Notes under the pieces: generated by a model
Told to the model about the DNA's origin: nothing
Database searches by the model: none
What the model saw: the letters and a program-made list of their open reading frames with translations, nothing else
In this document: positions 7,265-54,165 of the stretch, one piece after another
How positions within the stretch are numbered: position 1 is the first letter of the stretch
Layout of the letters: every line of letters starts with the position of its first letter
Assembly: GCA_965205865.1 (NCBI GenBank)
Contig: CBDBHR010000030.1
Span: 32,001-96,000 of the forward strand
From: a bacterium
GTDB lineage: Bacteria > SAR324 > NAC60-12
Direction: 5' to 3'
Length of the DNA: 64,000 nt
Program-made: the position numbers and the translations under genes

Positions 7265-7701
7265 TCTTCGGATTTTATGATTTCCTCGTATTGAAAGTCG
7301 TTCGCGACATCCAATTACAACCTTATCTTGGACTGGGGGCGGGTTATACCAATTACAGACTGAAGGACTTCGTTCAACGGTTTCCAGACCCCGATGCTCA
7401 TAAATCTTTGCGCCGGGGTCCCAATGGAGAAATCCCCTATACCGGTCTGCCCCAGGGAAGTGGACAGGAGTTTACATACATGTTTAGCACTGGCATGCTC
7501 ATACCGGTTACGGATCGTATGAAACTCGACTTGAGCTATCGTTATACGGATGCGGGAGAGATAAGAACCGACATTGGTGACATCACCATTGTACGATACG
7601 GGGAGGATGGCAGCCGCAGGGAAATCCCGGTTAAGATCGACGAAACTGTGGCTGACTTCAAAACCCACGCCTTGCTGGTGACACTCAGGTACGATTTCTA
7701 G
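7265..7701 (+). pseudogene. 5'-truncated outer-membrane beta-barrel (Opa/OmpW-like 8-strand) gene
   Basis: PYLGLGAGY, LDLSYRY and terminal LRYDF aromatic signature; no N-terminus; paralog of 30057-30595. Confidence 0.75.
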
Positions 7702-8145: not shown

Positions 8146-9897
8146 CCCAAATTGAGCGATTCTAAAAAAGGATCAGATTTTCAAGATGATTTTTTTGCCT
8201 GAGAAAGGCAATCATTCTGAAATCAGATTTTGATCATCAAATCCATGGATGTTTGAGTGAGAATGAGCATCAAAATGCTGTTTTCAGATGTGGAAGGTCT
8301 TCATTTCTCATGTTTTGGACGCACTTATCCCCTTAAACTTTAATGTTTTTGTTTTTTAATTGAAGCGAAACCCGTTGATCAGATTGGCGCCAATGCGTGC
8401 TGGCAGGTGGCAAATAGTTGGTCCAATTGCAAGCGCTCAAAGGTCTTTTTTGGTATTTTCAAGATCAGTTTTCCGGCATGACGAACCAGTTTGCCTGCCG
8501 TATCAAGAAACTGGCGCCGGAAGGTATCAGCATACATCGTTACCGCAATCACTGGCTTGCTGACATCTTCTTTGAAGGATTCGAAGAGGTTATTGCCAAG
8601 CAGCATCAGATAGTACCATGCGGTATTGGAAATGAAGTCCTTGAAGGGAAGTTGTTGATGACCAAAGTTTTTCAGCGCCCGGTTGGCCAGTTCATCCTTT
8701 CCCCGTCCGTGGTACGAGCCAAGGATGCTATGAGCATCGATGCGCTTTTCTTCAGCGGCTTGGCTGAGTTGGCCATCAATGGCCTCTCCCATACCAAGGT
8801 TCGTAATGATCACGCCATCATGATCCAAACCCGGCAAAGAGAGTTGGCTATCGTGTTCAATCAAGCGGCTGTAGATCGTGCGACGAGCCTTCTTCCATGT
8901 CCCCTGCTGGCTCTTAAACTCGGTGTACTGCCAGATCTCCTTCTTGCCCGATGAAGTGAAGGTCTGCCAGTCAGTGGCTTCTTCCGCAGCATTCCTCACA
9001 TTGGCATAGGACTTTCCTCCGCTTCAGCTAACCGATGTTCAGTCGTTCACAGGTTTCAAAGATTTTTTCGTCAAAAAAACCGGTGTCCATGCGCACCATG
9101 ATTGGTACATCATCTCGGTATTGGCGGCGAATCCTTTTCACGATATGAACCAGCATATTCTGAACAGTTTTCCCGTGATTCGAATGTTTGCTACCTCCGC
9201 GAAAAACTGCGTCAACCATATAACGACCCCAATTCATCTGCAGGGGATGAAATCCTTTGACCATCTTGTAAGTCGGCTGGACACCATGGCGTTTCAGGGC
9301 ATCATCATTATCAAGTACCATCGAATCCAGACCCAACACAATCACCGTTGGACAAGTCTTCTTCAGTCTCCAGATAAACAGTATCTGCAGCAGATGACGA
9401 AACAGGTAGACTCGTACAAAAGAGAACTTTCCAAAAAATCTTTTCACGGCATGCGAGGAGGCAAGGTCTTGCTCACTGCATGACAGCAAGGCGGCATAAC
9501 CCTCGCCCCTTTTGAGGTGATCGAACCAACTGAGATGACGGCTGCTGCCGTCCATGAAAAAACAGAGGATCTGCGCAAAAAAATCAGAGACAGCAATTCC
9601 TTTTTTATTTTTACGCATCGAACCAAACAACCTTTCGATGATCGGCATCAGCCGAATGCTTTGCAGATACTGGGCAAACAAGGCCAATCCGGCACGACTT
9701 GTCAAGTGTTCATCGGTTGGCTGAATGGCATCAATTATCTGTTTCTTTTTATCCTGAACTGTTATATTTTTTCCCATAAAGCTCTCTACCTGTTGGGTTG
9801 TGTTAGATTTTGTGAATTTTTTTATTTTAACCACTGAAATATAACACATTTTTCCCAAGGTTGGGAGCTTTTTTTATTACGAATCGCTCAACTTAGG
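8146..9897 (-). mobile_element. IS1380-family element, copy 1 (transposase split into 9028-9858 and 8379-8999)
   Basis: 17-bp imperfect IRs CCCAAATTGAGCGATTC/GAATCGCTCAACTTAGG, imperfect 5-bp TSD TATGA/TTTGA; LTSRAGL, GFHPL, VRMDTGF, YHGRG..E motifs. Confidence 0.92.
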
Positions 9898-24145: not shown

Positions 24146-25897
24146 CCTAAGTTGAGCGATTCGTAATAAAAAAAGCTCCCAACCTTGGGAAAAATGTGTT
24201 ATATTTCAGTGGTTAAAATAAAAAAATTCACAAAATCTAACACAACCCAACAGGTAGAGAGCTTTATGGGAAAAAATATAACAGTTCAGGATAAAAAGAA
24301 ACAGATAATTGATGCCATTCAGCCAACCGATGAACACTTGACAAGTCGTGCCGGATTGGCCTTGTTTGCCCAGTATCTGCAAAGCATTCGGCTGATGCCG
24401 ATCATCGAAAGGTTGTTTGGTTCGATGCGTAAAAATAAAAAAGGAATTGCTGTCTCTGATTTTTTTGCGCAGATCCTCTGTTTTTTCATGGACGGCAGCA
24501 GCCGTCATCTCAGTTGGTTCGATCACCTCAAAAGGGGCGAGGGTTATGCCGCCTTGCTGTCATGCAGTGAGCAAGACCTTGCCTCCTCGCATGCCGTGAA
24601 AAGATTTTTTGGAAAGTTCTCTTTTGTACGAGTCTACCTGTTTCGTCATCTGCTGCAGATACTGTTTATCTGGAGACTGAAGAAGACTTGTCCAACGGTG
24701 ATTGTGTTGGGTCTGGATTCGATGGTACTTGATAATGATGATGCCCTGAAACGCCATGGTGTCCAGCCGACTTACAAGATGGTCAAAGGATTTCATCCCC
24801 TGCAGATGAATTGGGGTCGTTATATGGTTGACGCAGTTTTTCGCGGAGGTAGCAAACATTCGAATCACGGGAAAACTGTTCAGAATATGCTGGTTCATAT
24901 CGTGAAAAGGATTCGCCGCCAATACCGAGATGATGTACCAATCATGGTGCGCATGGACACCGGTTTTTTTGACGAAAAAATCTTTGAAACCTGTGAACGA
25001 CTGAACATCGGTTAGCTGAAGCGGAGGAAAGTCCTATGCCAATGTGAGGAATGCTGCGGAAGAAGCCACTGACTGGCAGACCTTCACTTCATCGGGCAAG
25101 AAGGAGATCTGGCAGTACACCGAGTTTAAGAGCCAGCAGGGGACATGGAAGAAGGCTCGTCGCACGATCTACAGCCGCTTGATTGAACACGATAGCCAAC
25201 TCTCTTTGCCGGGTTTGGATCATGATGGCGTGATCATTACGAACCTTGGTATGGGAGAGGCCATTGATGGCCAACTCAGCCAAGCCGCTGAAGAAAAGCG
25301 CATCGATGCTCATAGCATCCTTGGCTCGTACCACGGACGGGGAAAGGATGAACTGGCCAACCGGGCGCTGAAAAACTTTGGTCATCAACAACTTCCCTTC
25401 AAGGACTTCATTTCCAATACCGCATGGTACTATCTGATGCTGGTTGGCAATAACCTCTTCGAATCCTTCAAAGAAGATGTCAGCAAGCCAGTGATTGCGG
25501 TAACGATGTATGCTGATACCTTCCGGCGCCAGTTTCTTGATACGGCAGGCAAACTGGTTCGTCATGCCGGAAAACTGATCTTGAAAATACCAAAAAAGAC
25601 CTTTGAGCGCTTGCAATTGGACCAACTATTTGCCACCTGCCAGCACGCATTGGCGCCAATCTGATCAACGGGTTTCGCTTCAATTAAAAAACAAAAACAT
25701 TAAAGTTTAAGGGGATAAGTGCGTCCAAAACATGAGAAATGAAGACCTTCCACATCTGAAAACAGCATTTTGATGCTCATTCTCACTCAAACATCCATGG
25801 ATTTGATGATCAAAATCTGATTTCAGAATGATTGCCTTTCTCAGGCAAAAAAATCATCTTGAAAATCTGATCCTTTTTTAGAATCGCTCAATTTGGG
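24146..25897 (+). mobile_element. IS1380-family element, copy 2 (1752 bp, split transposase)
   Basis: Same IRs as copy 1; perfect 5-bp TSD ACACT. Confidence 0.95.
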
Positions 25898-26149
25898 ACA
25901 CTATAAAGCCAATGCCAAGTTTTTTTTCAGCTCACAAAGTTGCTGGCTGAAACAGACAGTCTCCGAGGGTTGTGAAAAAAGGAAGTTTCACAAAAACAAA
26001 CAACCCTCGCAAAGGAGACTGTCATGGAAAAAATTAACATTGAATCTTTCTCATGTCAAACACTTTTTTTGGAATTGACGCGCATTAGAAGACCTTTGCC
26101 TCAATTCCACGCACCCCCACTCCGTATTTCGCAAGGGGCGATTCGATCC

Positions 26150-26350
26150 GGCCAGCTCCGATTCCCAACAGAAAAGATTCGACGAGACGTCTTCATACGA
26201 TCCGGCTGGATTCCTGGTCTTCGCCAGCAATGACAACTGGATTCCCAACAGAAGGGATTCGAAGAGGCGTCTTCATACGATCCGGATGGATTCCTGGTCT
26301 TCGCCAGCAATGACAACTGGATTCCCAAGAGAAGGGATTCGAAGAGGCTT
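26150..26350. repeat. ~80-bp tandem units containing GGATTCCTGGTCTTCGCCAGCAATGAC
   Basis: About 2.5 units visible. Confidence 0.85.
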
Positions 26351-26561
26351 CTTCAAAAGCGTTCTTCAGTTTACCGAAGCCATCCTATAGTTACAAGGAA
26401 AAAACTTCAGCTGCTCGATCTCGCTATTCTCCCTGCCCTCAATCCATGCATTCCTCATGCCTAAGCTGGCATAGACGCAACCAAAAAGGTTGTTTATGAC
26501 GGTATATCGCTCAAAATGAACCTCGAGATGGCAGGGCCGGGTGACCTGCCGGTCAAAAATG

Positions 26562-27845
26562 TATCGAGTTGTCATTCCTGGCAAAGACCAGGAATCCACC
26601 GCTATGCCTCTCATCGAATTGTCATTTCATCGAGTTGTCATTTCATCGAGTTGTCATTTCATCGAGTTGTCATTGCTGGCGATTCAGAGTGACTCCTGGA
26701 TTCCTGGTCTGCGCCAGGAATGACACGCTTGTATCCAGGGTGACTCCTGGATTCCTGGTCTGCGCCAGGAATGACACGCTTGTATCCAGGGTGACTCCTG
26801 GATTCCTGGTCTGCGCCAGGAATGACACGCTTGTGGGGACAGGAATGACACGCTTGTATCCAGGGTGACTCCTGGATTCCTGCAAAGACCAGGAATCCAC
26901 CGCTATGCCTCTCATCGAATTGTCATTCCTGGCGCAGACCAGGAATCCACCGGTATGCGTCTCATCGAGTTGTCATTCCATCGAGTTGTCATTCCTGGCA
27001 ATGACCTGGAATCCACCGCTTTGCCTCTCATCGAGTTGTCATTTCATCGAGTTGTCATTCCTGGCGCAGACCAGGAATCCACCACTATGCCTCTCATCGA
27101 GTTGTCATTTCATCGAGTTGTCATTCCTGGCAATGACCAGGAATCCACCACTATGTCTCTCATCGAGTTGTCATTTCATCGAGTTGTCATTTCATCGAGT
27201 TGTCATTTCATCGAGTTGTCATTCCTGGCAAAGACCAGGAATCCACCGCTATGCCTCTCATCGAGTTGTCATTTCATTGAGTTGTCATTTCATTGAGTTG
27301 TCATTTCATTGAGTTGTCATTCCTGGCGCAGACCAGGAATCCACCGCTATGCCTCTCATCGAGTTGTCATTTCATCGAGTTGTCATTCCTGGCGCAGACC
27401 AGGAATCCACCGGGCTGGCGATTCAGGGTGACTCCTGGATTCCTGGTCTTCGCCAGGAATGACACGCTTGTATCCAGGGTGACTCCTGGATTCCTGGTCT
27501 TCGCCAGGAATGACACGCTTGTGGGGACAGGAATGACACGCTTGTATCCAGGGTGACTCCTGGATTCCTGGTCTTCGCCAGGAATGACACACTTGTGGGG
27601 ACAGGAATGACACGCTTGTATCCAGGGTGACTCCTGGATTCCTGGTCTTCGCCAGGAATGACACGCTTGTGGGGACAGGAATGACACGCTTGTATCCAGG
27701 GTGACTCCTGGATTCCTGGTCTTCGCCAGGAATGACACGCTTGTGGGGACAGGAATGACACGCTTGTATCCAGGGTGACTCCTGGATTCCTGGTCTTCGC
27801 CAGGAATGACACGCTTGTGGGGACAGGAATGACACGCTTGTATGG
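26562..27845. repeat. large array of GTCATTCCTGG-N6-CCAGGAAT palindromes in alternating orientation blocks, with 16-bp CATCGAGTTGTCATTT microrepeats
   Basis: Forward block, reverse block, forward block, reverse block; no unique spacers. Confidence 0.95.
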
Positions 27846-28191
27846 ATAAATTGAAAGAAGTCGTTTGGATTCTTGTAGAGAAGAAAGTAGATGGAGGACC
27901 GCTGGTGCAGTCCCCCATCCGAAAGGTAATTATGAAACTGCGGGTGTTATAAAGGCACCGCCCGCTGGCCTGGAATGCTCTCAAAGGGGGAGTTTAAAAC
28001 ATGGAACCAGACATGCAATTTATTTGCCAAACATCTTCTAAATGAGGTGGGGTCAAGATGGGGTCAGGCTTGCATACTTGCGCATTGGTATTTTTTTCGT
28101 TTCATAGGTGAAGAGTCTCCCTCAGAACTCTTGCTTCATGTCTCGCTTGATGTGGTTGTGGTCAAATTGGCCTGGCAAATCCGGGACCTGC

Positions 28192-28545
28192 TCAGAATGA
28201 GTAGAACGCCCCTAGATGGGCGCGATGTTCGTCCCCACCGTGATCGTCACTGAGCGGCAGGTACAGGTACTCGATACGAAACGAAGCGGCGTTGGTTATC
28301 GGTACGTCGAGGCCGCCACCCAAGAGGAGCCCAAGGCCGTTGTCGTCATCTTTTTCTGACATCGATACCAGGCGGTTCGCAATCGTTATCGTTGCCGTTC
28401 CCTCGAATTCATCATGCCATCGCCTCACCCCGATCTTGACGAAAGGCATGACGAAGGAGGAATCAAGCGACACTTGCCTTACGAGGGCGCCGTACAGTGA
28501 CCAGCGCCTCAGCTTGACCTTGGCATTAAAATTAAACGTAGCGCA
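28192..28545 (-). pseudogene. 5'-truncated copy of the OmpA-like beta-barrel gene at 36262-36945
   Basis: Near-identical barrel strands with variant loops; 5' part deleted up to the junction CAAGACATGTTTATAG. Confidence 0.9.
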
Positions 28546-28656
28546 AGATCGGCAAGACATGTTTATAGCACTTAAACAGAGGAATGAATAGAACTTGTCA
28601 TGTTTGAATCGTTCCTGTACTTACGGAAGTTGATTCATCAAATGAAATTTCTGAAA

Positions 28657-28902
28657 ATGGAAGCAGAAGTAGAATTTGATCCTCTTGACAGGCTACTCAA
28701 AAAATTAAGGGACCACGCTGTTGATCACAAATCAAAAATTGTTTCTATGAACGAGGAGATGACAAAAGAATTTGTCGGCGTGAAGAAGCAACTCAGGGGA
28801 ATGGACGAGCGACTCAAGGAAATGGACGAGCAATTTCAAGGTCAATTTAGTGAAATGGTAAGTAAGATTGATGCGCTGGCAGACCTTTTGAGGAAGGAAT
28901 GA
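28657..28902 (+). CDS. small coiled-coil protein (paralog of 37260-37526)
   Basis: Heptad repeats EMDERLKEMDE. Confidence 0.6.
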   Translation: MEAEVEFDPLDRLLKKLRDHAVDHKSKIVSMNEEMTKEFVGVKKQLRGMDERLKEMDEQFQGQFSEMVSKIDALADLLRKE

Positions 28903-29049
28903 AACTTATGAGGAGAGGGGTATAACTCTTGTGCGCCCGCTGGCCTGCAAACCTCTCAGACCATTCCTGATCGCTTGCATACGTCAATCCATCTCCTCCT
29001 GAATAATGGGACTAGTCATGCAATTTATATGCAATTTATTTGCCAAACA

Positions 29050-29230
29050 CCTTCTGAGAAAACGCTTCATTATTGAAACCATCAACAACCAACTGAAAAA
29101 TATATCACGAATTGAGCATTCCGGACGTCGCAGCGTTAAAAACTTTATGGCTGATTCACTCGCAGGCTCAATTGCTTATACCTGGCAACCGCAAAAACCG
29201 ACCCTCAATAGAATGAAAGAGGCAACGCCG
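29050..29230 (+). mobile_element. IS982-family transposase C-terminal remnant
   Basis: LLRKRFIIETINNQLKNISRIEHS.RRS..NF motif. Confidence 0.75.
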
Positions 29231-29515
29231 CTTCAAATCATCGAGTGCGCTATCTCGTACTCGGGTGAGAGATGTTGTTGAACATCCAATTGCCATCGGG
29301 AATTCGCATATTCGTTGATGATAACCTGAATCCTGCTTGCGCATGAATTGAAAAAAGCTTGATATGACAATAATGAGGTTATAAAAGTCATAAAGCTGAA
29401 TACCGAAAGGAAAGGGAATAAGCGCTATCACTTTGTCATAACGGAGCTGATCATGCAACCAGGAAAATCAAAACTGCGCATTTCAAATTAGAAACGGTTC
29501 AGATAATCAGATACA

Positions 29516-29788
29516 ATGGAAATAATAACTTCCTTTGCAATTTCGCTCTCTGCCGTTATTATAGCTGGGATTGGGCTTTTTTGGAAAATAAGGACGGATT
29601 ACCGCAGAGAGTTTGATGAGCGAATTAAAGGTGTCGAGAATAATTTGACCGATCGCCTTAAGGACGTCGAGAATAATCTGACCGATCGCGTCAATAAGGT
29701 CGATGACCGGTTGCGAGAAATTGAATCAAATATACAACGGGCGCTCGGACGGCTGGAAGGACGTCAAGACGCTCAGAATAAAATATAG
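29516..29788 (+). CDS. N-terminal TM plus coiled-coil small protein
   Basis: Hydrophobic N-terminus, repeated VENNLTDR. Confidence 0.6.
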   Translation: MEIITSFAISLSAVIIAGIGLFWKIRTDYRREFDERIKGVENNLTDRLKDVENNLTDRVNKVDDRLREIESNIQRALGRLEGRQDAQNKI

Positions 29789-29803
29789 TAGTTAAAGCGG
29801 AGT

Positions 29804-29986
29804 ATGCATATGGAACCGAATACCCATCTCCTTCCTCAAAAGGTTCAGCAAAGACCGGGTCTTACAATCGATTGGAGTTTCCAACGCGTCGAGTCAGCGT
29901 TTGTGCGTGTCGAAGGGTCTGTGGAAAGAATCGAACGATTGGTAAAGAAATTCGATGAACTTGAAAAAAAGGCCAAGCAAAGCTGA
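29804..29986 (+). CDS. small coiled-coil hypothetical protein
   Basis: GGAG RBS; RVE heptads. Confidence 0.35.
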   Translation: MHMEPNTHLLPQKVQQRPGLTIDWSFQRVESAFVRVEGSVERIERLVKKFDELEKKAKQS

Positions 29987-30056
29987 GATGGGGTCAAGAT
30001 GGGTCAGGTTTGCATACTTGTATTTCCTTCCGAATACATGCAAGCCTGACCCAATA

Positions 30057-30595
30057 CTAAAAATAGAACCTGAGTGTTGCCAGCAAGGCGTGGGTTTTGA
30101 AATCGGCCACGGTTTCGTCGATTTTGACTGGAATTTCTCTGCGCCTGCCATCCTCCCTGTATCGCACGATGGTGATGTCACCGACGTCGGTTCTTATTTC
30201 TCCGGCGTCCGTATAACGATAGCTCAAGTCGGGTTTCATGCGATTCGAGACTGGTATGACCAGACCGGTGGTCAACATATATGTAAATTCCTGTCCGCTT
30301 CCTTCGGGGAGACGGGTAAACGGGATTTCTCCATTGGCACCCCGGCGCAAATAACCTTTAGGATTATCGGGGTCTGGAAACTGTTGAACGAAGTCTTTCA
30401 GTCTGTAATTGCTGTAACCCATCCCCACTCCAAGATAGGACTGTATCCGTAGATCGCTGATGACTTTCCACGGCGGGAAATCGTAGAATCCGGATAATAA
30501 GAGTTGCCGCGTTTCCAGCTTGGCTATCGAAGGTTGACGATCTCCCGATCTCGCATAGTTGGTATTCCCCTTGAAGTCGAGATTCCCGGCCGAGA
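30057..30595 (-). pseudogene. 5'-truncated OMP beta-barrel cassette bracketed by REPs
   Basis: Paralog of 7265-7701; terminal LRFYF; REPs at 30001-30052 and 30597-30640. Confidence 0.8.
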
Positions 30596-30689
30596 TGGGG
30601 TCAGGCTTGCATACTTGTATTTCTCTGAATACAAGTATGGTCACCGTAAAGAACTGATTTATAGTGACTTTCAGTCACCTTTCATCATT

Positions 30690-30892
30690 CCTCCGGTACA
30701 GATCCGGACATCTTGGCTGACACGGACTGACCAGAAATTCGGATCTTTGGCTTTATCCAGCTTGTGGAACTGCAATCCCGGCCGGGTAGGATTCAATTGA
30801 AGGTCAAAGGCCGTGGTCTTCACGGCATTTTGCTCGTCACCGGTGAGCTTGGCGAGGCTGTCGGTGAAGGTGTCGGCAATGCGGAAGTTCAC
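30690..30892 (-). pseudogene. N-terminal RelE-like domain of a UvrD-type helicase, truncated
   Basis: MNFRIADTFTDSLAKLTGDEQ.AVKTTAFDLQLNP..PG...HKL...KDPNFWSVRV recalled as the start of this helicase family. Confidence 0.7.
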
Positions 30893-30922
30893 ATCAGGTC
30901 TCGACTTGGACCACAGAGGCGC

Positions 30923-31954
30923 TCAGACCTCCTCCACGACGATACAGCCACAGTGAATTCTTCTTTGTCCCGCGCTATGACTTTGAGCAGTCGTGGGTTG
31001 ATACTCCGCTATTGTAAATAGCATCCATATTTTAGAGAATTGAAGGTATTTTTCGATAGGAATACATTCAGATTGAGGTAATTCTTTGGGGCCATAGGAT
31101 TTATGTAGCTCGTCCACTTTAAGTATTGAGCGCGTAAGGTGCCCTACTAGTTGTACAAAGAACACATGGAAAATGTTTTCCGGTTTCTGATCGGCAATCT
31201 TCAATTGGATGGGCTCATGCCGGTCCCACATGAATGTGGCATCACCAGAACTGCCATCCGCCGGCGAATACCATGCTGCACCATGTCCAAGCACGTAAAG
31301 ATTCTTTACCATCTCATCACGGTTAAGGCATGCGTTTATCTGACCAAATCGGCGAGCAACATCCCGAAATTCAATGCCGTCTTCCAGTTTTGTCGCAAGC
31401 ACAGTAGTCCAGAGTGGATTCAATATATAACCCTCCTTATCAAAATCCCGAATATGTTGATTCTCGGTGAGATACCCGTAACTCCGTTCAGGGCGGAACA
31501 GACGCGAAACTGTGACGAGCTTTCTCATGGCTTCGTCGAGCTCTTCAAACCCGAGTGTTCGCTTCACTTCGACTACCGAATAAATGCCTTCTATGGGAAA
31601 GTGCACGCGACGTGATCCGGAAGTCGCTCCGAGCTTGACCACAGACGCCCAAATTCGGTTCGTGATCAAAACTTCGCAGTCGCCTGCCGTTTTCCCGTCC
31701 TTGTCGTTCACGACCCCAGCATCCACGGAGTATCGTTCCGGGAGCAATTTCGAGAGCTCTTGACGTACTATGTCCTCAAGTCCAGGGCCTGCATCGTAAT
31801 TGTTTATGCTGAATCTCTCTTCGATATTGACCTCGTTTATGATGCGACTTTGAACTGCCTGGCACGTCATCTCTAGTCCGGCACTGAGGGTTTTGCTTTT
31901 CTCGGATTGTGGCTGCCATTCACCGACATCAGGCAGTTTATCTTTCCAATTCAT
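30923..31954 (-). CDS. DUF6602-like putative PD-(D/E)XK nuclease
   Basis: LLPERYSV..GVV.D..G...GDC.V.I...FPIEG.Y.VVEVK motif. Confidence 0.7.
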   Translation of the reverse strand: MNWKDKLPDVGEWQPQSEKSKTLSAGLEMTCQAVQSRIINEVNIEERFSINNYDAGPGLEDIVRQELSKLLPERYSVDAGVVNDKDGKTAGDCEVLITNRIWASVVKLGATSGSRRVHFPIEGIYSVVEVKRTLGFEELDEAMRKLVTVSRLFRPERSYGYLTENQHIRDFDKEGYILNPLWTTVLATKLEDGIEFRDVARRFGQINACLNRDEMVKNLYVLGHGAAWYSPADGSSGDATFMWDRHEPIQLKIADQKPENIFHVFFVQLVGHLTRSILKVDELHKSYGPKELPQSECIPIEKYLQFSKIWMLFTIAEYQPTTAQSHSAGQRRIHCGCIVVEEV

Positions 31955-32139
31955 GTGATTCCTCTTGAAGTGGCGACCGACGAGGGACGATCCCTGAAAG
32001 TTAAAATCAATTATGGACTAGGTCATGTGTGTGAGATGGGGTCAGGCTTGCATACTTGTATTTCTTTCCAAATATGCAAGCCTGACCCCATCTAAAATGA
32101 AACCTCGAGATGGCAGGCCGGGTGACCTCCCGGCCAAAA

Positions 32140-32970
32140 ATGTATCGAGTTGTCATTCCTGGCAAAGACCTGGAATCCACCGGTATGCCTCTCATCGAGT
32201 TGTCATTCCATCGAGTTGTCATTGCTGGCGCAGACCAGGAATCCACCGCTATACCTCTCATCGAATTGTCATTGCTGGCGCAGACCAGGAATCCACCGCT
32301 ATGCCTCTCATCGAGTTGTCATTGCATCGAGTTGTCATTGCTGGCGCAGACCAGGAATCCACCGGGCTGGCGATTCAGGGTGACTCATGGATTCCTGGTC
32401 TGCGCCAGGAATGACACGCTTGTGGGGACAGGAATGACACACTTGTATAGAGTGCCATTTCTTTTACTTGCTAAGATATAAACGTAGTAGGTTTTCATGA
32501 TGGCGACTCCTGGATTCCTGGTCTTCGCCAGGAATGACACACTTGTGGGGACAGGAATGACACGCTTGTATCCAGGGTGACTCCTGGATTCCTGGTCTTC
32601 GCCAGGAATGACACGCTTGTGAGGCCAGGAATGACACGCTTGTATCCAGGGTGACTCCTGGATTCCTGGTCTTCGCCAGGAATGACACGCTTGTGGGGAC
32701 AGGAATGACACGCTTGTATCCAGGGTGACTCCTGGATTCCTGATCTTCGCCAGGAATGACACGCTTGTATCCAGGGCGACTCCTGGATTCCTGGTCTTCG
32801 CCAGGAATGACACGCTTGTGGGGACAGGAATGACACGCTTGTATCCAGGGTGACTCCTGGATTCCTGGTCTTCGCCAGGAATGACACACTTGTGGGGACA
32901 GGAATGACACGCTTGTATCCAGGGCGACTCCTGGATTCCTGGTCTTCGCCAGCAATGACACGCTTGTATG
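32140..32970. repeat. second GTCATTCCTGG palindrome array
   Basis: Same units and same left flank (CTCGAGATGGCAGG...AAAAATGTATCG) as the 26.5-kb array. Confidence 0.95.
32445..32498 (-). pseudogene. GIY-YIG nuclease 5' fragment embedded in the repeat array
   Basis: [18 protein letters not shown]. Confidence 0.8.
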
Positions 32971-33740
32971 GATAAATTGAAAGAAGATGTTTCAGCTATC
33001 TCAAAAGACGTCGCAGTGATAAATGTTAAATTCGAGACAGTCTGTACCAAGGAAGAGCTTTTAAATGTTTCAAATTAAGATACTAAACGAATTCGCTACG
33101 ATGGTACAACGTCGTTTGGATTCTTGTAGAGAAGAAAGTAGATGGAGGACCGCTGGTGCAGTCCCCCATCCGAAAGGTAATTATGAAACTGCGGGTGTTA
33201 TGAAGGCACCGCCCGCTGGCCTGGAATGCTCTCAAAGGGGGAGTTTAAAACAATGACCTGGAGCCGCCTCATAGATGAAGGGAGCCCTCTCGAGAACCCG
33301 TTTGGTTGAATAAGACACTTGGCTGAGGTGACTTTGATCATGGCAATACGAATTATATTTTCAGCAGTGGTTGTGAAGGTTCCCAGACGATCGATAAAGT
33401 ACCGACACTGATCGCTTGAATCGCTTGCATACATCCATCTCCTCCTGAATAATGGAATCAGACATGCAATTTATTTGCCAAACACTTCTCTAAATGAGGT
33501 GGGGTCAGGCTTGCATACTTGCGCATTGGTATTTTTTTCGTTTCATAGGTAAAGAGTCTCCCTCAGAACTCTCTCGGTTTTTATGTTTCTTCAGGAAGCC
33601 ATAGAGGTCTTTATCCTTCCGGTTTCCCATGCAGGACTCTCATGGTGGAGCCAATCAGAGTGCCTCCGTCCTTTTCCCGGAACCAGCGAGCCCAACTTCT
33701 TTTTCCATGCATTTACAAATATGCAAGCCTGACCCCACTC

Positions 33741-33950
33741 TCAGTTTGAAATCGACGCCATTTTTTGTGCTGCAAAACTTATGGCAATAGCAATTCCAAT
33801 ATTGCTGACAACCAATCCTACTCCCCATTGAAACATTTTGCCTTCCAGACGCACTATTTCCGTTTTAAGGTTCGCGATATCCTCTTTGGTTGCCATTTGT
33901 TCGATAATTGTTTCCAATCGGGTTATTCGGTTTTCAGATGTGGATTCCAT
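33741..33950 (-). CDS. DUF1640/CCDC90-like small coiled-coil TM protein
   Basis: Paralog of 11720-11953; flanked by REPs on both sides. Confidence 0.7.
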   Translation of the reverse strand: MESTSENRITRLETIIEQMATKEDIANLKTEIVRLEGKMFQWGVGLVVSNIGIAIAISFAAQKMASISN

Positions 33951-34035
33951 GATTATCTCCGATTCAAAAGATGAAATGGAAATAAGTCAGGCTAGCATAC
34001 TTGTATTTCTTTCTGAGTGCAAGCCTGACCCAATT

Positions 34036-34154
34036 ATTGGCTCTACGAGATTGTTTTTATGTTCATAAACTCTTTTAAGAAGATCATTGGTCACTCCAAT
34101 ATATAGAATGCCATTTCTTTTACTTGCCAAGATATAAACGTTGTAGGTTTTCAT
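34036..34154 (-). pseudogene. GIY-YIG nuclease (YhbQ-like) N-terminal fragment
   Basis: [38 protein letters not shown]; cut off at a REP. Confidence 0.85.
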
Positions 34155-34272
34155 GAGGGCGACTCCTGGATTCCTGGTCTTGGCCAGGAATGACACACTT
34201 GAGTCGGGGACAGGCTTGCAAGTTTGCAAAAATGAGTATTTTTTAAATTTTAACCTTTTTCAAATTGCCAAG

Positions 34273-34546
34273 ATGTCTCGGATAACGCGTTTGTACGACG
34301 CTGGTACGCTTTATCATGTAATATTTCGAGGCAATGGGGGCCAACGTATTTTTTCGATGACTGCGACTCTCGACGCTTTTATCAGTCTTCGATTGGAAAT
34401 CCGCAAAAATCCGGGAAGTGGCAAATACTCTCAAGCGAGATGATGCTACTTTCAGTCGTGGTGCGCATAAGTTGTGAGAAAGATTGAAGGAATCCACAAA
34501 TCTCCAAAAGCGGTTAAAAGAACTCAACCTGAAAATGTTTTCTTAA
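34273..34546 (+). pseudogene. REP-associated tyrosine transposase (RAYT/Y1) remnant with large internal deletion
   Basis: MSRITRLYDAGTLYHVIFRGNGGQRIF N-terminus; HTH-like tail RDDATFSRGAHKL; inverted REPs at 34206 and 34551-34572. Confidence 0.75.
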
Positions 34547-34693
34547 ATTCGCAAACTTGCAAGCCTGACCCCTTCATTTTTTGAATGAATATAAACCATT
34601 TCAGTAACCGATCATTTTGACCCCCTTCCAGGCAAGGCATCTAATTAAAATGAAAAAAACCTTGAACAAAGACAAAGATTTCAACAAGATTCA

Positions 34694-34817
34694 TCAGAAC
34701 AAGGCGTTCTAGCGGAGGCCCAACGTAGCGTTTTTCAGTCATTTTGAGATTATCACTCTGTTCATCTCATCATCAATTTTCTTCGTAGGGTGGTCGCCCG
34801 TGAACTCAACGTTCCCC
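34694..34817 (+). other. attC-like integron recombination site
   Basis: R'' TCAGAAC, L'' GCGTTCTAG, L' CGTGAACTC, R' GTT; ~124 bp. Confidence 0.55.
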
Positions 34818-34945
34818 AATATGATCCCTTAAATTCACATGAAACAATTTCATCAATGAGATATATTTGAAGAAAAGATAAAATAAAAAGACAAATAGAA
34901 AATCGAAAAATTAAAAGTTATTCAAAAAAAAAAAGAGAGGGCATC

Positions 34946-35215
34946 ATGCCATCAATATCAATGTTTTATGGGATCATCGTCTATCTGTACTTTAAAGACA
35001 ATAAACAGCATAGAGTCCCACACATTCACGCAAAATACCAAGGACAAGAAGTGGTTATTGCGATTCCGGAAGGTGATATTCTAGAAGGAAGCCTTCCAAA
35101 ACCAAAGTTAAAACTGCTTCAAGCCTGGGTCGAAATTCATCGAGATGAGTTAGTAGCAGATTGGGAACTAGCTGTTTCAGGACAACCACCGTATAAAATC
35201 GAACCTTTGAGGTAG
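34946..35215 (+). CDS. DUF4160 protein (TA module)
   Basis: MPSISMFYGI, HRVPHIHAKY, WVEIHRDEL..DW, IEPLR. Confidence 0.9.
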   Translation: MPSISMFYGIIVYLYFKDNKQHRVPHIHAKYQGQEVVIAIPEGDILEGSLPKPKLKLLQAWVEIHRDELVADWELAVSGQPPYKIEPLR

Positions 35216-35217
35216 CC

Positions 35218-35466
35218 ATGAATCCAAGAGTGACCGCAGTGACCGCAATGCCTGATTATAAATTAGGACTTATTTTTTCAAATGGAGAAGAGGGTATTTA
35301 TGATTGTTCTGAACTTCTTGATTTTGGTGTTTTTAAAGAATTAAAAGACGAAAACTATTTTAAACAAGTAAAAGTTTGGGATGGGACAATTGCATGGCCC
35401 CACGAACAGGATATTTGTCCTGATACTCTTTACCTAGACTCCAAGAAGGTAAATACCGAACAATAG
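35218..35466 (+). CDS. DUF2442 protein (TA module)
   Basis: DYKL.L.FSNGE, GVFKEL, GTIAWP..DICPDTLY. Confidence 0.9.
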   Translation: MNPRVTAVTAMPDYKLGLIFSNGEEGIYDCSELLDFGVFKELKDENYFKQVKVWDGTIAWPHEQDICPDTLYLDSKKVNTEQ

Positions 35467-35781
35467 AATGGAGAAGGGTTACCTACACCACGCTCGTCCC
35501 TCGCTCCATTTCAGCAATCTCTCATCATCAATAAAATTTGAGAAGGGGTCAGGCCTTTGATTATTTGATTAGGATGGGGGTCAGGCTTGCATACTTGTAT
35601 TTCTTTCCAAATATGCAAGCCTGTCCTAATCTCTGAGAAATACAAGTATGCAAGCCTGACCCCAATACGGAAGTTCCCTTTCACAAGTATGCAAGCCTGA
35701 CCCCAATAGAAATCTCTCTTTGTGAGAGACCCGGACACCAGTGACCAAAGTCCATCATGGCCCTGATTCGGAAGTTTCCTT

Positions 35782-36090
35782 TCAGATAGTTAAAAGTTCT
35801 GGTGGGGTAACAAGAAAATCAAAGGAAAATATTTTCCTTAGTTTTTTGTCTACCTCGATTTTTTTGTCTACCTTGAATTTTTTGTTCATTTTTACAATTT
35901 TTTCAACTGGTATACCATCTTCCAAATTTCCGACTATATGCATATGTAAACATTCCTTGAAATTATCATATGCTTCATCAAATGAGTCTTCTACGGAAAA
36001 GCATGCCAACACGTCAGGAGAAAAAGAACAATAATTATTTCCAGCTTTTTCTATAACGACTCTTACCGAAAATGTTTTTGCAGTTTTCAT
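35782..36090 (-). CDS. hicB: HicB-like antitoxin
   Basis: VVIEKAGNNYCSFSPDV.ACF....SFDEAYDN. Confidence 0.75.
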   Translation of the reverse strand: MKTAKTFSVRVVIEKAGNNYCSFSPDVLACFSVEDSFDEAYDNFKECLHMHIVGNLEDGIPVEKIVKMNKKFKVDKKIEVDKKLRKIFSFDFLVTPPELLTI

Positions 36091-36188
36091 TATAATTTTA
36101 TAGAGGCTTGTTTTAAAATATTCTTATAAAGGGTAATTGGTACACCTTTGTTAGTCCCATGATATGGAACCGTTACTTTTCCTATTAG
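36090..36188 (-). pseudogene. HicA toxin C-terminal remnant
   Basis: GKVTVPYHG...VPITLYKNILKQA* directly upstream of hicB. Confidence 0.7.
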
Positions 36189-36261
36189 TACGCTCGAGCC
36201 ATGCTACATGCCTCGCTTGATGTGGTTGTGGTCAAATTGGCCTGGCAAATCCGGCACCTGC

Positions 36262-36945
36262 TCAGAATGAGTAGAACGCCCCTAGATGGGCGCGATGTTC
36301 GTCCCCACCGTGATCGTCACTGAGCGGCAGGTACAGGTACTCGATACGAAACGAAGCGGCGTTGGTTATCGGCACGTCGAGGCCGCCACCCAAGAGGAGC
36401 CCAAGGCCGTTGTCGTCATCATCGAATGGCACCGATACCAGGTTGTCCGCAATCGTTATCGTTCCCGTTCCCTCGAATTCATCATGCCATCGCCTCACCC
36501 CGATCTTGACGAAAGGCATGACGAAGGAGGAATCAAGCGACACTTGCCTTACGAGGGCGCCGTACAGTGACCAACGCCTCACCTTGACCTTGGCATCAAA
36601 GGATACCTCGTATTCGTCAAACGTTGCCGTCAGGTCCATACTCTGGTTCACCTCGCCACTGCCAAGATAACCAACCTCCAGCGCGAAGTCGTCATTCAAG
36701 TTGTACCCCGCAAAGGTGCTCCAGGCGAACGCCCGATCGTCAGTCGACAAGGACAAGTTGTTGATATTGTTATGCCCCTCTTGGCGTAGCTCATTCTCAA
36801 ATTTTCCGGTATGCTCTTCCAATTCCGGATACAACACCATCCCTGGAGCCGCACCCACATACATATCACCCACGCGATCCTGCGGATATGCCGAGGTCGC
36901 CATGAGTACTGCGCAGACCCCCGTCAACCATTTCAATATTTTCAT
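36262..36945 (-). CDS. OmpA-like transmembrane beta-barrel protein
   Basis: Signal peptide, FAGYNLN.FALEVGY, RIEY, terminal YSF. Confidence 0.85.
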   Translation of the reverse strand: MKILKWLTGVCAVLMATSAYPQDRVGDMYVGAAPGMVLYPELEEHTGKFENELRQEGHNNINNLSLSTDDRAFAWSTFAGYNLNDDFALEVGYLGSGEVNQSMDLTATFDEYEVSFDAKVKVRRWSLYGALVRQVSLDSSFVMPFVKIGVRRWHDEFEGTGTITIADNLVSVPFDDDDNGLGLLLGGGLDVPITNAASFRIEYLYLPLSDDHGGDEHRAHLGAFYSF

Positions 36946-37259
36946 GATTATCTCCTCTCAAATACTATTGAATTAAAAAGGGATTTCGTACCCCTGCCAT
37001 TGAGCGCATCGTAACTATTCAGATCTCTGAAAAACCCGTTTAGTCAAATAACGTTGAAAAAATTCCCAGGTAAAATTTTCACGTCCTCCCACGATATTGT
37101 TCAATCGAGCGGGAACCCTCTCCTTCACTGAAATAACTCAGTCAAGACATGTTTATAGCACTTAAACAGAGGAATGAATAGAACTTGAAATGTTTGAATT
37201 GTTCCCGTACTTCAGAAGTTGATTCATCAAATGAAATTTCTGAGGAAAAAGGAATAAAA

Positions 37260-37526
37260 ATGGAAGCAGAAGTCGAATTTGATCCTATTGACAGGCTACT
37301 CAAAAAATTAACGGACCACGCTGTTGATCACAAATCAAAAATTGTTTCTATGAATAAGGAGATGACAAAAGAATTTGTCAGTGTGAAGAAGCAACTCACC
37401 CAATTGACTAATGTAAACAAGGAAATGGACGAGCGACTCAAAGAAATGGACGAGCGATTTCAAGGTCAATTTAGTGAAATGGGAAGTAAGATTGATGCGC
37501 TGGCAGACCTTTTGAGGAAGGAATGA
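37260..37526 (+). CDS. small coiled-coil protein
   Basis: AAGGA RBS, heptad pattern. Confidence 0.6.
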   Translation: MEAEVEFDPIDRLLKKLTDHAVDHKSKIVSMNKEMTKEFVSVKKQLTQLTNVNKEMDERLKEMDERFQGQFSEMGSKIDALADLLRKE

Positions 37527-37679
37527 AACTTATGAGGAGAGGGGTATAGCTCCTGTGCGGGCGTTGTCATATTCCATGACTCTATGATGAAGAGAGCTCG
37601 CGCAGGGGTTTGTAACAATGAAAGGAGATATCCATGGAAAGAGGACCTGAAGGAGAGAAGCGAATCGAAGGGGTCTCTG

Positions 37680-38315
37680 AAGATACCCGAATAGTTACCA
37701 TAAACTCTCTTAAAAGGTTGGAGGAAATGGGCGGGAGCGCGGAAGACACCTGCGCCATAACCGCCGATCTCACCGACACCAAATCAGTCATTTCATTAAT
37801 TGAACAGGTTGAAGGCGCTTTAGGTCCTATTGATATTGTGATCAACAATGCAGGGATGGTGCAAACTGGCAGGGAATTACCCCGTTTATTGCTTCATGAA
37901 ACAAGCGATGATCGCTGGCGGTACGGAATCGATATCAATCTCACCAGCGCATTTCTAGTCACCCGAGGGGTTCTTCCGGGCATGATGGCGCGTCAGTATG
38001 GCCGTATTGTACAAGTGTCCTCGGTCACTGGGCCTCTGGTTGGTATTTCAGGCAGGCATGCTTGGCATGACTCGATCACTGGCTATTGAAATCGGCAGTT
38101 ACAACATCACGGTAAACTGTGTGGGGCCGGGTTGGATTCAGACATCATCCAGCAGTGAAAGTGAGATTACCGCTGGAAAATATACACCGGTTGGTCGCCC
38201 GGGCACACCCAATGAGGTTGGTCATGTCGCTGTCTTCCTTGCTGGCGAAGAGGCAAGTTATGTGAGCGGTCAGCTGATCGTTGTTGATGGTGGAAATACG
38301 GTACAAGAATATAAT
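37680..38315 (+). pseudogene. SDR / 3-oxoacyl-ACP reductase-like pseudogene
   Basis: IVINNAG, GRIVQVSS, ITVNCVGPG, VDGG; no Rossmann start; catalytic YxxxK region deleted or frameshifted. Confidence 0.8.
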
Positions 38316-52469: not shown

Positions 52470-54165
52470 CCTAAATCCTGCAATTGAATATTTTGATTGA
52501 GTTTCCCCCCACTCTTTGAGAGGTTTTTTTAAAAAAAAGGATTTGAGAGTTGAATTTCCATCAGTCCTTGCTCATAAAGGTTTTTCCGCCCTCCATTAGA
52601 TCGTCATATTTTGTGATGATCTGATACCCGCTTTCGCGGGCACAAGATTCAAGACGTACTTCTCCCTGGATTTGGGAATTTACATCTCAGCAAAATGTAT
52701 CCACTGGAGTGAAACAAAGGATCTAGGTCTCTCCAACAGCGACCCATGCATCCCATTGAGCATTGTAAAGTGTTCTTTCCGGAACTCTCAGTTTTTGTTG
52801 ACGAGCGCCACTCGTCCATTTTCCTGCCATTCGGACAAGATAGGTGCGCATGGTGGCCGGTTCCCAACGGCGCAGTATTGCGTTACCACTACAAAGGGCC
52901 ATCCAGCGCAGCGTGTTGTAAGCGAGTATCGCGCATTGGAACAAGGCACTGTTGGCCCAAAAATCGTCGGTTTTAATCTGAGCCAGCGCAGTTTGATTTT
53001 TTGCTTCCTCAATCCATGTCTCAGCGACCGCCCTTTGGCCATACTCTTTGTGAGCCTGCCAGGGAGTGAGCGCGTCAGTGAGAACATAACAAAAATAATC
53101 GTACTCCTTCATCTCAAAGAGGGTGGCCATCCCTTTGAGTTCCTCCTCTTTCTCCCTGCGTACGGCCATGAATTTTCTTGACCTCCTCCAAGTTTCACAT
53201 TGGTGGGAAAACTCACACCCTTCCCAAGCGGGCTGCCCCTTCACTTTTTGCCATTTTTGGGTTTCCAACAACGAGACAAGCCCCTTGAGTTTGACCTTGA
53301 TCAGATAGCCATGGCCTCGTTCTTCGAGGAAATCCAGCAAATCCCCCACAAAAAAACCACTGTCTCCACGAAACAGAGTGCGAGTCCGATTTGGAAGGTG
53401 AGCGAGAAGTTGCCGCATGAATTCAACGACTCCATTGCTGGTATAGGCACTCCCATCACGAAGCCAACCCTGAAGAATCTCCTTTGTCTCTGTGCAAAAT
53501 GCCAGCAGAGGATGATACGAAGCTGCACCGCGTTTGTGGGGATTATATCCGACAGACACTCCTTGCTGCTTGCCGTAGGCCGTTTTCACAGTGGAGTCCA
53601 CGTCAATCACAAGACAGTGTAACACCCCAACGATGCTTGTCCCACTTCGAAGCGCCTTACGCCAGATACCGGCTCGAATCCGATGGTTCAAGCTCTCCAT
53701 CTCATTGATGTTTTTCTGTGTGAAAGTACGCAGTATCCGGCCGAATGTGGTTTCATCCGGAATCCTCAGCCAACCGGCCACACGACTCAAAACACGGTCG
53801 TTCCAAACTGTCACAATCGAACGAATCGAACGGGCGCCACCAACAATGCCGACCACCGACAAAATGACCATGTCCACCGCGTCATAAAGACCCGTGGCGC
53901 CACGCCGATGATCTACGGTCTGCTCTGTCTTTGAAACAATCCCTTCTTTGTGAAAAAATTTGACAACCGGAATCAAGCCTGCTTGCGCGGTCAGGTCTCT
54001 GCCTCCCTGGCTGATATGGATGTTTTTTGCTGTCGTTCTTGCCGATCTTGCGCTACCTTTGTTTTTCATGGTAATGGTGATCTCTTAAAATGTTGATTCT
54101 GGTGTTAACTATTTGAGTATATTACCATTTCCATGTTTGATTGTCATCTAATTGCAGGATTTAGG
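52470..54165 (-). mobile_element. IS1380-family element with intact transposase (52723-54069)
   Basis: IRs CCTAAATCCTGCAATT/AATTGCAGGATTTAGG; 5-bp TSD TAACA; IDVDST, SYHPL, RGDSGF, AETWIEEAKN. Confidence 0.95.

Follow-up and report, generated by a model that had tools for sequence, protein, structure and literature searches.

The 64,000-nucleotide stretch of DNA analysed here (the window) belongs to a bacterium of the SAR324 lineage, whose genome assembly, G000, comprises 4.74 Mb in 30 contigs, designated below by C numbers. The window corresponds to C30:32001-96000, and positions given without a contig are those of the window. Between 28049 and 35704, short inverted repeats alternate with genes, gene fragments, and remnants of mobile elements. 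The original prediction described the repeats as repetitive extragenic palindromes (REPs), and the locus as an array of gene cassettes assembled around the remnant of a REP-associated tyrosine transposase (RAYT). The assignment to a Y1/HUH tyrosine-transposase system stands. Instead of a classical REP, however, the repeat is the terminal inverted repeat (TIR) of a TIRtron, a known type of element, and its arms begin with GGGGTCAG. Terminal inverted repeat of TIRYT, the tyrosine transposase of TIRtrons, is thus a better name than REP.

Inverted repeats of the locus and the TIRtron family

The repeat was searched as a 15-mer motif, GGGGTCAGGCTTGCA, on both strands with up to two mismatches, and as an exact 10-nt core, GGGGTCAGGC. 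The window contains 14 copies of the 15-mer (10 exact, three with one mismatch, and one with two), all of which fall within 28060-35704, whereas shuffled windows contain 0.13 matches on average and never more than one. The claim of more than ten repeat copies is therefore correct. Genome-wide mapping, which had been proposed as a check, yields 96 matches to the 15-mer in 4.74 Mb and 145 exact cores, compared to about 7 cores predicted by base composition. The locus is the densest 8-kb stretch of the genome, with 11 cores against six in the runner-up, and 10 of the 18 genome copies of the arm subfamily found in the window sit within its 7.7 kb. With one mismatch at most, the motif occurs 75 times in G000, 31 times in G001, and zero to four times in each of 24 other genomes; among the genomes scanned, it is frequent in this genus only. 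G001 is the only genome from the same genus and represents another species, with about 80-90% DNA identity in shared blocks. An Rfam scan of 26000-38000 (E up to 1) identified no bacterial family, and the hairpins produced only sub-threshold matches to eukaryotic microRNA precursors. The family Acido-Lenti-1 was absent from the results for this region and for the loci L018, L019, and L021.

Throughout the genome, the motif sits at the outer ends of arms that are paired in inverted orientation and delimit units falling into distinct size classes. The full-length units are 1048 bp (C29:722036, 736585, and 744954) or 1033 bp long (C4:25432), with inverted arms of about 25 nt. Ten shorter units measure 367-369 bp and others about 220-236 bp, in addition to hairpins that span 52-87 bp. 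The protein encoded by the 1048-bp units has 312 amino acids, and its intact copy at C29:722065-723000 contains a Y1_Tnp domain (PF01797, E 2.7e-14) and a C-terminal Bac_DnaA_C domain (PF08299, residues 223-286, 32.7 bits against a cut-off of 31.5). The HxH motif is kept in all five aligned rows of TIRYT paralogues, and the RY(I/V)HLNP motif in all three rows that reach this region; we take both motifs to be catalytic. Five TIRYT copies at C29:722-746 kb have 98-100% amino-acid identity. Among the five TIRYT lineages examined, the C29 lineage and C26:138345-139277 are free of stop codons, and the others are broken. The intact enzyme that the original prediction called for is thus present elsewhere in the genome. 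These intact, recently amplified TIRtrons have the outer 13 nt of the repeat in common with the arms in the window. The locus and its surroundings contain no intact TIRYT, and no intact partner gene in the assembly belongs to the arm subfamily of its hairpins.

The published accounts, in the sections that deal with these elements, describe RAYT-like genes flanked by terminal inverted repeats sharing the motif GGGGWSAS, a TIRYT subclass 2.1 defined by C-termini bearing a helix-turn-helix (HTH; Bac_DnaA_C, HTH_23, or HTH_28), and TIRs that are found dispersed singly, as dimers, or in clusters (Di Nocera et al. 2013, PMC3733652; Quentin et al. 2018, PMC6006769). The G000 family resembles the elements of these sections in its Y1/HUH transposase, its GGGGWSAS-type inverted repeats, to which the arms beginning with GGGGTCAG conform, its DnaA_C-like HTH, and its dispersed single, dimeric, and clustered repeats. 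Since all testable defining features are present, the family belongs to the known TIRtrons, of which G000 is a new and unusually rich member. Compared to the TIRtrons of those sections, the G000 family is unusually prolific: its arms fall into several subfamilies, five of its intact copies are nearly identical, and an internal-deletion derivative has been amplified. The window locus concentrates hairpin forms among gene fragments, and an association with breakpoints does not feature in the same sections. A sequence search of the PDB with the intact TIRYT gave no match at E up to 0.01, a search of PHROGs provided nothing informative, and a locus search with a single TIRYT protein detected relatives in the same-genus genome only.

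REPIN-RAYT systems, reportedly the subject of work by Bertels and Rainey in 2011 and by Nunvar et al. in 2010, resemble the G000 family, as far as partial accounts of them go, in their non-autonomous hairpin doublets, which a Y1 transposase, its own gene bordered by these repeats, presumably mobilises in trans. The doublet hairpins are present here at 32038-32089 and 30000-30053, whereas a single arm has, by inspection, no clear palindrome and no GTAG-type tag. The transposase is multicopy (five copies at 98-100% identity, and diverged intact or broken paralogues) rather than single-copy, and TIRYT scores 71.1 bits with the NCBIfam model REP_Tyr_transpos (NF047646), below its cut-off of 80. 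The 145 cores in G000 are well under the higher copy numbers given for REPs. The Y1 HUH domain (PF01797) and a presumed single-strand hairpin mechanism are shared with the insertion sequences (IS) of the IS200/IS605 group. The latter have subterminal hairpin ends, no terminal inverted repeats, and a transposase without a DnaA_C-like HTH, whereas the ends of the G000 elements are inverted repeats of about 25 nt and the HTH is present.

Only derived TIR forms occur in the window, where solo arms and minimal hairpins accompany a unit of 236 bp and a deletion derivative of 367 bp. The left part of a unit of about 236 bp is located at 28049-28131 (+ strand), with a terminal duplication of 11 nt in front of its arm (28060-28074). 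The unit is cut at 28131, as 28001-28131 corresponds to 33452-33572 at 88%, and 28132-28530 to 36202-36600 at 95.5%. A complete two-armed unit of 236 bp, resembling a miniature non-coding transposon (MITE), spans 33501-33736 and matches C30:272268-272497 at 88.7%. Minimal hairpins occupy 29988-30053 (with arms at 30000-30014 and 30039-30053 and, immediately beyond the hairpin, a partial duplicate of the terminus), 32038-32089 (perfect, 52 bp), and 33986-34032 (degenerate). The element at 30597-30638 (+) retains the left arm and the loop, whereas its right arm is reduced to the inner half, with the outer one missing. At the right end of the locus, a truncated left arm of another TIR subfamily (35545-35572, +), in which the core is followed by CTTTGATTA, abuts a composite of one left arm and three right arms (35577-35704; right arms 35607-35630, degenerate, 35649-35663, and 35690-35704). 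Nesting is also seen in the 30597 hairpin, whose arm harbours an intron stump.

The putative RAYT remnant is a 367-bp internal-deletion derivative of a TIRtron (34206-34572, +) that contains both TIRs and about 37 N-terminal and 50 C-terminal codons of the TIRYT gene. A deleted Y1 transposase does lie between inverted copies of the motif, at 34206-34220 (+) and 34558-34572 (-), as predicted. The element aligns to positions 1-183 and 848-1033 of the full-length C4 unit, which defines an internal deletion of 664 bp; it keeps only TIRYT residues of approximately 1-39 and 261-312, and encodes no working transposase. Ten complete two-armed copies of 367-369 bp, among them the one in the window, have the same deletion junction relative to the C4 copy, with pairwise identities of 89-99% (mean 92.5%). 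The common junction and the range of identities indicate that amplification involved the derivative in its entirety and is not recent; the stretch from TIR to TIR is thus shown to move as a whole. Two of the copies, C29:78335 and C30:794464, adjoin blocks conserved in G001, which has a TIRtron remnant at the matching edge. Therefore, these two insertions are older than the split of the species. The copy in the locus belongs to an old dispersed deletion derivative, a point against the integron-like capture reading.

The intron stump at 30641-30709 (-) is formed by the last 69 nt of a 692-nt group II intron without an open reading frame (ORF), the rest of which is deleted. The intron (Rfam RF02005, 160.7 bits; seen, among other places, in L018, C29:717200-718250) is present in G000 as 16 full-length copies at 96-100% identity and as 49 partial matches. 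In 15 of the 16 full-length copies, the intron directly follows the ...CAGGC in the core of a TIRYT arm, nine of these cores being exact 10-mers, and several arm subfamilies are affected, which indicates that the group II intron homes into the inverted repeat of the transposon. A non-exhaustive search of the literature on group II introns and REPs found no description of homing into such repeats.

Eighteen of the 145 ends carry a direct duplication of 11-12 nt, composed of 3-4 nt of the flank and the first 7-8 nt of the arm. Such duplications occur at 12% of the ends compared to 0.18% of random 25-mers, and the window has them at 28049-28074 and 29988-30014. The flank consensus before GGGG is GAAAN (positions -5 to -2: G 73, A 91, A 108, and A 108 of 145 ends). 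The end duplications suggest a point of cutting or restart slightly inward of the arm end, with a predicted distance of about 7-8 nt, and may hint at the cut site of TIRYT. The sections on these elements in PMC3733652 and PMC6006769, and a non-exhaustive literature search, gave no description of such end duplications, of an amplified deletion derivative, or of intron homing to the arm core.

Genes and gene fragments between the arms

The DNA between the arms consists mostly of gene fragments or debris of other mobile elements, with genes on both strands. No arm separates the several ORFs and fragments in the first 1.9 kb (28075-29999). The piece at 28132-28935 is a segmental duplicate of 36202-37559 and includes the 3' half of an outer-membrane β-barrel gene and a coiled-coil ORF. 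The two parts are 95% and 87% identical to their counterparts, the copy is without 36601-37142, and its ends lie off the TIR arms. It is followed by the C-terminal remnant of an IS982-family transposase (28955-29272, +; PF13612, NF033520 below cut-off), which has a paralogue at C28:57625-57935. Two small coiled-coil ORFs are also found between arms. An outer-membrane-protein-like fragment at 30057-30595 (-) is truncated at its N-terminus and has an equally truncated paralogue at 7291-7701; its predicted label is tenuous, being based on this paralogue and on a weak NCBIfam match (E 1.3e-5) below the cut-off. The distance from the stop of the fragment (30057) to an arm end (30053) is 4 nt, and the truncated end (30595) comes within 2 nt of the next element (30597).

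The predicted helicase stub (30671-30892, -) encodes about 64 residues that match the N-termini of genes annotated as UvrD-helicase / 3'-5' exonuclease at amino-acid identities of 60-72%, and the predicted DUF6602 nuclease (30923-31954, -) is an intact, PD-(D/E)xK NucC-like protein of 343 amino acids (PF20247, E 3.5e-16) that is unique in the genome. The helicase gene ends at 30709/30710, at the intron stump, which lies within the disrupted right arm of the hairpin at 30597. The nuclease followed by the first 64 or so codons of the helicase (30671-31954) looks like a decayed two-gene module of a defence type. The region of the helicase stub has a very high summed contig depth in all four sequencing runs described below (26-416), so that the sequence is widespread in those communities.

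A tandem array of hairpin-bearing units of about 74 nt, located at 32110-32967 beside a GIY-YIG stub, is not derived from TIRs and belongs to the same family as the array at 26500-27850. Each unit of the two arrays has a hairpin of the form ATTCCTGG...CCAGGAAT, and truncated GIY-YIG genes adjoin the arrays. A collinear version of pieces that are scattered across the window is present at C28:57500-58900 (L022). The ORF at 33741-33950 (-), which encodes 69 amino acids, lies 5 nt from the arm end at 33736. The DUF1640-like label proposed for it was not seen; the ORF has a sub-threshold match to DUF2730 (E 7.5e-4), and a relative in G001 adjoins an IS982 remnant. The GIY-YIG gene stub at 34042-34201 (-) comprises the first 38 or so codons and a leader. 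As the original label indicated, it matches PF01541 (E 2.7e-8), in the first 34 of 78 profile positions only. Both its ends are cut beside TIR elements, 10 nt and 5 nt from the arms, and about 12 related copies of the 160-bp stub are dispersed in the genome. The predicted toxin-antitoxin (TA) pair at 34946-35466 (+) matches both DUF4160 and DUF2442, and has the coding part alone in common with its paralogue at C29:420622-421139. The proposed closeness of coding pieces to repeats is thus borne out, for example by the outer-membrane-protein fragment, the ORF at 33741-33950, and the GIY-YIG stub, all within 10 nt of an arm, but does not extend to 28075-29999.

Breakpoints, strain variants, and related genomes

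None of the outward-facing inter-arm segments of the window has a second full copy in the genome, and only the interiors of elements are multicopy. The duplicate search used the core with one mismatch, which gives 462 matches, many of them by chance, and its results outside the window are noisy. Two duplicated pieces, 28132-28935 and the TA pair, have ends unrelated to arms. The ends of paralogous matches, listed by hand, define 21 breakpoints, 16 of which are away from the arms. Junctions off the arms include 28131, inside a TIR unit, 30709, inside the intron stump, and the joint of a variant strain beside the IS982 remnant. An integrase domain (PF00589) was found in none of the 71 scanned ORFs among the 78 non-overlapping window ORFs of at least 80 amino acids; the remaining seven lie in tandem repeats or antisense. 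The hairpins were also considered as attC sites, a reading rejected on inspection since they are symmetric and have neither polarity nor an attC core.

Strain data were obtained from the short contigs of public sequencing runs X2-X5; run X1, with a share of 0.12, was left out. Contigs of X2 bridge the local junctions at 29786-30621 (100% identity), 33614-34083, 34547-35179, and 35639-36241 without differences, and a contig of X3 bridges 30563-30851 likewise. In one variant contig, 37677 is linked to 29388, a joint that lies away from the arms and next to the IS982 remnant. The joints 32140->34206 and 32066->32932 seen in run contigs have only 28 letters on the shorter side and were not used, and the same applies to parts of the stretch where X3-X5 give little or no contig cover.

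DNA matches to the window are present in 13 of 41 related genomes, including G000 itself. G001 contains the β-barrel gene downstream of the locus (36194-36977) and otherwise short matches at the level of repeats or fragments only, and the flanks of the locus map 1.36 Mb apart. The synteny check envisaged in the original prediction, made with G001 as the only genome of the genus, thus reveals no collinearity with the locus. G001 has 35 motif matches in 130 kb around 2.50-2.61 Mb, some in hairpins between housekeeping genes, and some in a mosaic resembling the window locus. The stretch G001:C1:2510001-2610000 (L012-L016) also contains at least nine copies of a 115-amino-acid 23S_rRNA_IVP gene (PF05635), one of which is truncated by a TIR hairpin. 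A second mosaic of G000, at C30:264419-274247 (window coordinates 232419-242247, outside the window), consists of six or seven 367-bp units interspersed with a restriction-modification-like methyltransferase pair, a TA-like pair, and a piece of ClpP cut off at an arm. The pieces between its units map to at least five scattered places in G001. There are thus three TIR-punctuated mosaics: the window locus, C30:264-274 kb, and G001 at 2.57-2.59 Mb.

In five 20-kb stretches chosen for their TIR units (L042, L035, L037, L038, and L040), the longest collinear matches to G001 are about 1.1, 2.5, 2.9, 3.1, and 4.0 kb, respectively, and L042 has no single-copy piece above 1.1 kb that is collinear with G001. 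The corresponding matches in three random 20-kb stretches free of TIRs (L043, L044, and L045) are about 13, 13, and 7 kb. The TIR elements live in a scrambled compartment of the genome; the contrast does not show that they cause the scrambling.

Origin of the locus

G000 contains a mobile TIRtron family with intact enzymes and trans-mobilisable derivatives that has accumulated in variable DNA, and integron-like capture is unsupported. The locus is probably a pile-up of non-autonomous TIRtron derivatives, a graveyard of mobile DNA in which the arms mark scars and not capture sites. By analogy with IS200/IS605 elements and RAYTs, TIRYT would mobilise the units in trans through the single-stranded hairpin DNA of their paired arms. 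The copies may survive chiefly in dispensable, rearranged DNA, where units would have inserted next to, and at times within, each other and the remains of further mobile elements. Subsequent deletions and recombination beside or between copies could then have left the solo arms and one-sided gene stumps.

Several observations weigh against the graveyard explanation. Five of the 21 breakpoints lie within 10 nt of a TIR boundary, compared to 1.1 expected (P 0.004), so that breakpoints are closer to the repeats than chance predicts, as the original prediction had anticipated. Homology is not resumed beyond the arm at the outer-membrane-protein fragment, at both ends of the GIY-YIG stub, and at the ClpP fragment of the second cluster; therefore, these breaks are not plain insertions. 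A variant contig of X4 (1206 nt, 98% identity, 12 differences) matches only 30001-30592 and continues unlike the window for 201 and 413 nt, with both limits no more than 5 nt from arm ends, and X5, from another study, shows the variant with the same left limit. The presence of 10 of 18 copies of the arm subfamily in 7.7 kb is not predicted by chance insertion into dispensable DNA alone. Lastly, the synteny contrast is a correlation in a small sample, in which only the TIR-free controls were random. These points bear on an alternative in which the TIR ends are active recombination joints, where TIRYT or host repair of nicks causes adjacent deletions, one-ended transfers, and template switches, and distant or foreign segments are stitched beside arms into TIR-punctuated mosaics without a selected capture function. 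We consider this alternative, the main rival, doubtful. In addition to the breakpoint enrichment, the strain variant broken at two arm ends, and the local concentration of the arm subfamily, it is favoured by the one-sided gene stumps that abut arms both in the window locus and in C30:264419-274247, with pieces scattered in G001, and by the end duplications (18 of 145), which point to slippage or re-initiation at the ends. However, the 16 breakpoints away from arms do not fit it, the IS982 remnant, the multicopy IS, and the group II intron are also found at junctions, and homologous recombination or deletion between any dispersed repeats would look alike without the enzyme. The locus moreover lacks an intact TIRYT in it or nearby, and its arm subfamily lacks an intact partner gene. 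It is a yet more speculative and rather unlikely idea that the TIRYT inverted repeats are true recombination joints at which aberrant or one-ended HUH strand transfer places distant or foreign segments next to an arm, and so builds and reshuffles mosaics of accessory genes, including those for defence and toxin-antitoxin functions, in variable islands. Equally speculative is the corresponding role of the arm-homing group II intron as a second parasitic layer, parallel to the attC sites of integrons and the group IIC introns that home into them. The nearest precedent for capture by an HUH transposase are IS91/ISCR elements, whose enzymes carry adjacent DNA by one-ended transposition; they belong to another HUH family with other ends, whereas the transposase here is of the Y1_Tnp type and no transduced segment is demonstrated.

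The integron-like gene-capture array of the original prediction, in which a tyrosine transposase inserts and excises functional cassettes at hairpins, is highly improbable. Arms and short coding pieces do alternate regularly, as hairpin sites among short accessory genes do in integrons, and the content is of an accessory type, with the nuclease, TA-like pairs, and a HicB-like gene next door. The second cluster alternates alike, with restriction-modification and TA-like genes, and the homing of a group II intron into a hairpin repeat recalls the IIC-attC introns. Nevertheless, no window cassette has an arm-to-arm duplicate within the genome, most of the supposed cassettes are truncated genes or mobile debris in mixed orientations, and the helicase is cut at the intron stump and not at an arm. 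An intact recombinase is lacking next to the array, none of the 71 scanned ORFs contains an integrase domain, and the ends of paralogues ignore the arms. The locus thus differs from integrons in having no IntI, no attC core by inspection, no common orientation, no platform promoter, and no evidence for the movement of inter-hairpin units. A non-exhaustive search of the literature on RAYTs with integrons or gene cassettes found no proposal of cassette capture by RAYT or TIRYT. An artefact of assembly, in which contigs of the metagenome bin were wrongly joined across repeats, has a minimal probability. The bin consists of 30 contigs with 91.9% completeness and 3.7% contamination, the locus is rich in repeats, and related strains co-occur in the same samples. 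However, contigs of X2 and X3 from two studies bridge the local junctions without differences, which shows that the local structure is not such an artefact; one of the bridging runs is possibly the source sample, and no contig spans the whole locus.

TIRtrons were named in 2013 and, to our knowledge, have hardly been studied, with apparently no enzyme of the class assayed. G000 provides a rich natural data set, comprising intact and decayed copies, an amplified derivative, end duplications, and ends at strain-level breakpoints. If TIR ends drive rearrangement, they would represent a further route, besides IS elements and integrons, to scrambled accessory regions. If they do not, the locus is an ordinary graveyard of mobile DNA, and an example of clustered hairpin repeats near short genes that are no proof of an integron.

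Two further repeats are present in the window. A dispersed repeat of about 150 bp at 37008-37161 has about 83 matches in the genome at 72-85% identity. The multicopy IS (DDE_Tnp_1_4) at 24185-25898 and 8379-9858 has at least 17 copies with about 99.8% identity. Its transposase frame is split into ORFs of 276 and 206 amino acids, and an unsplit relative of 448 amino acids is encoded at 52723-54069.

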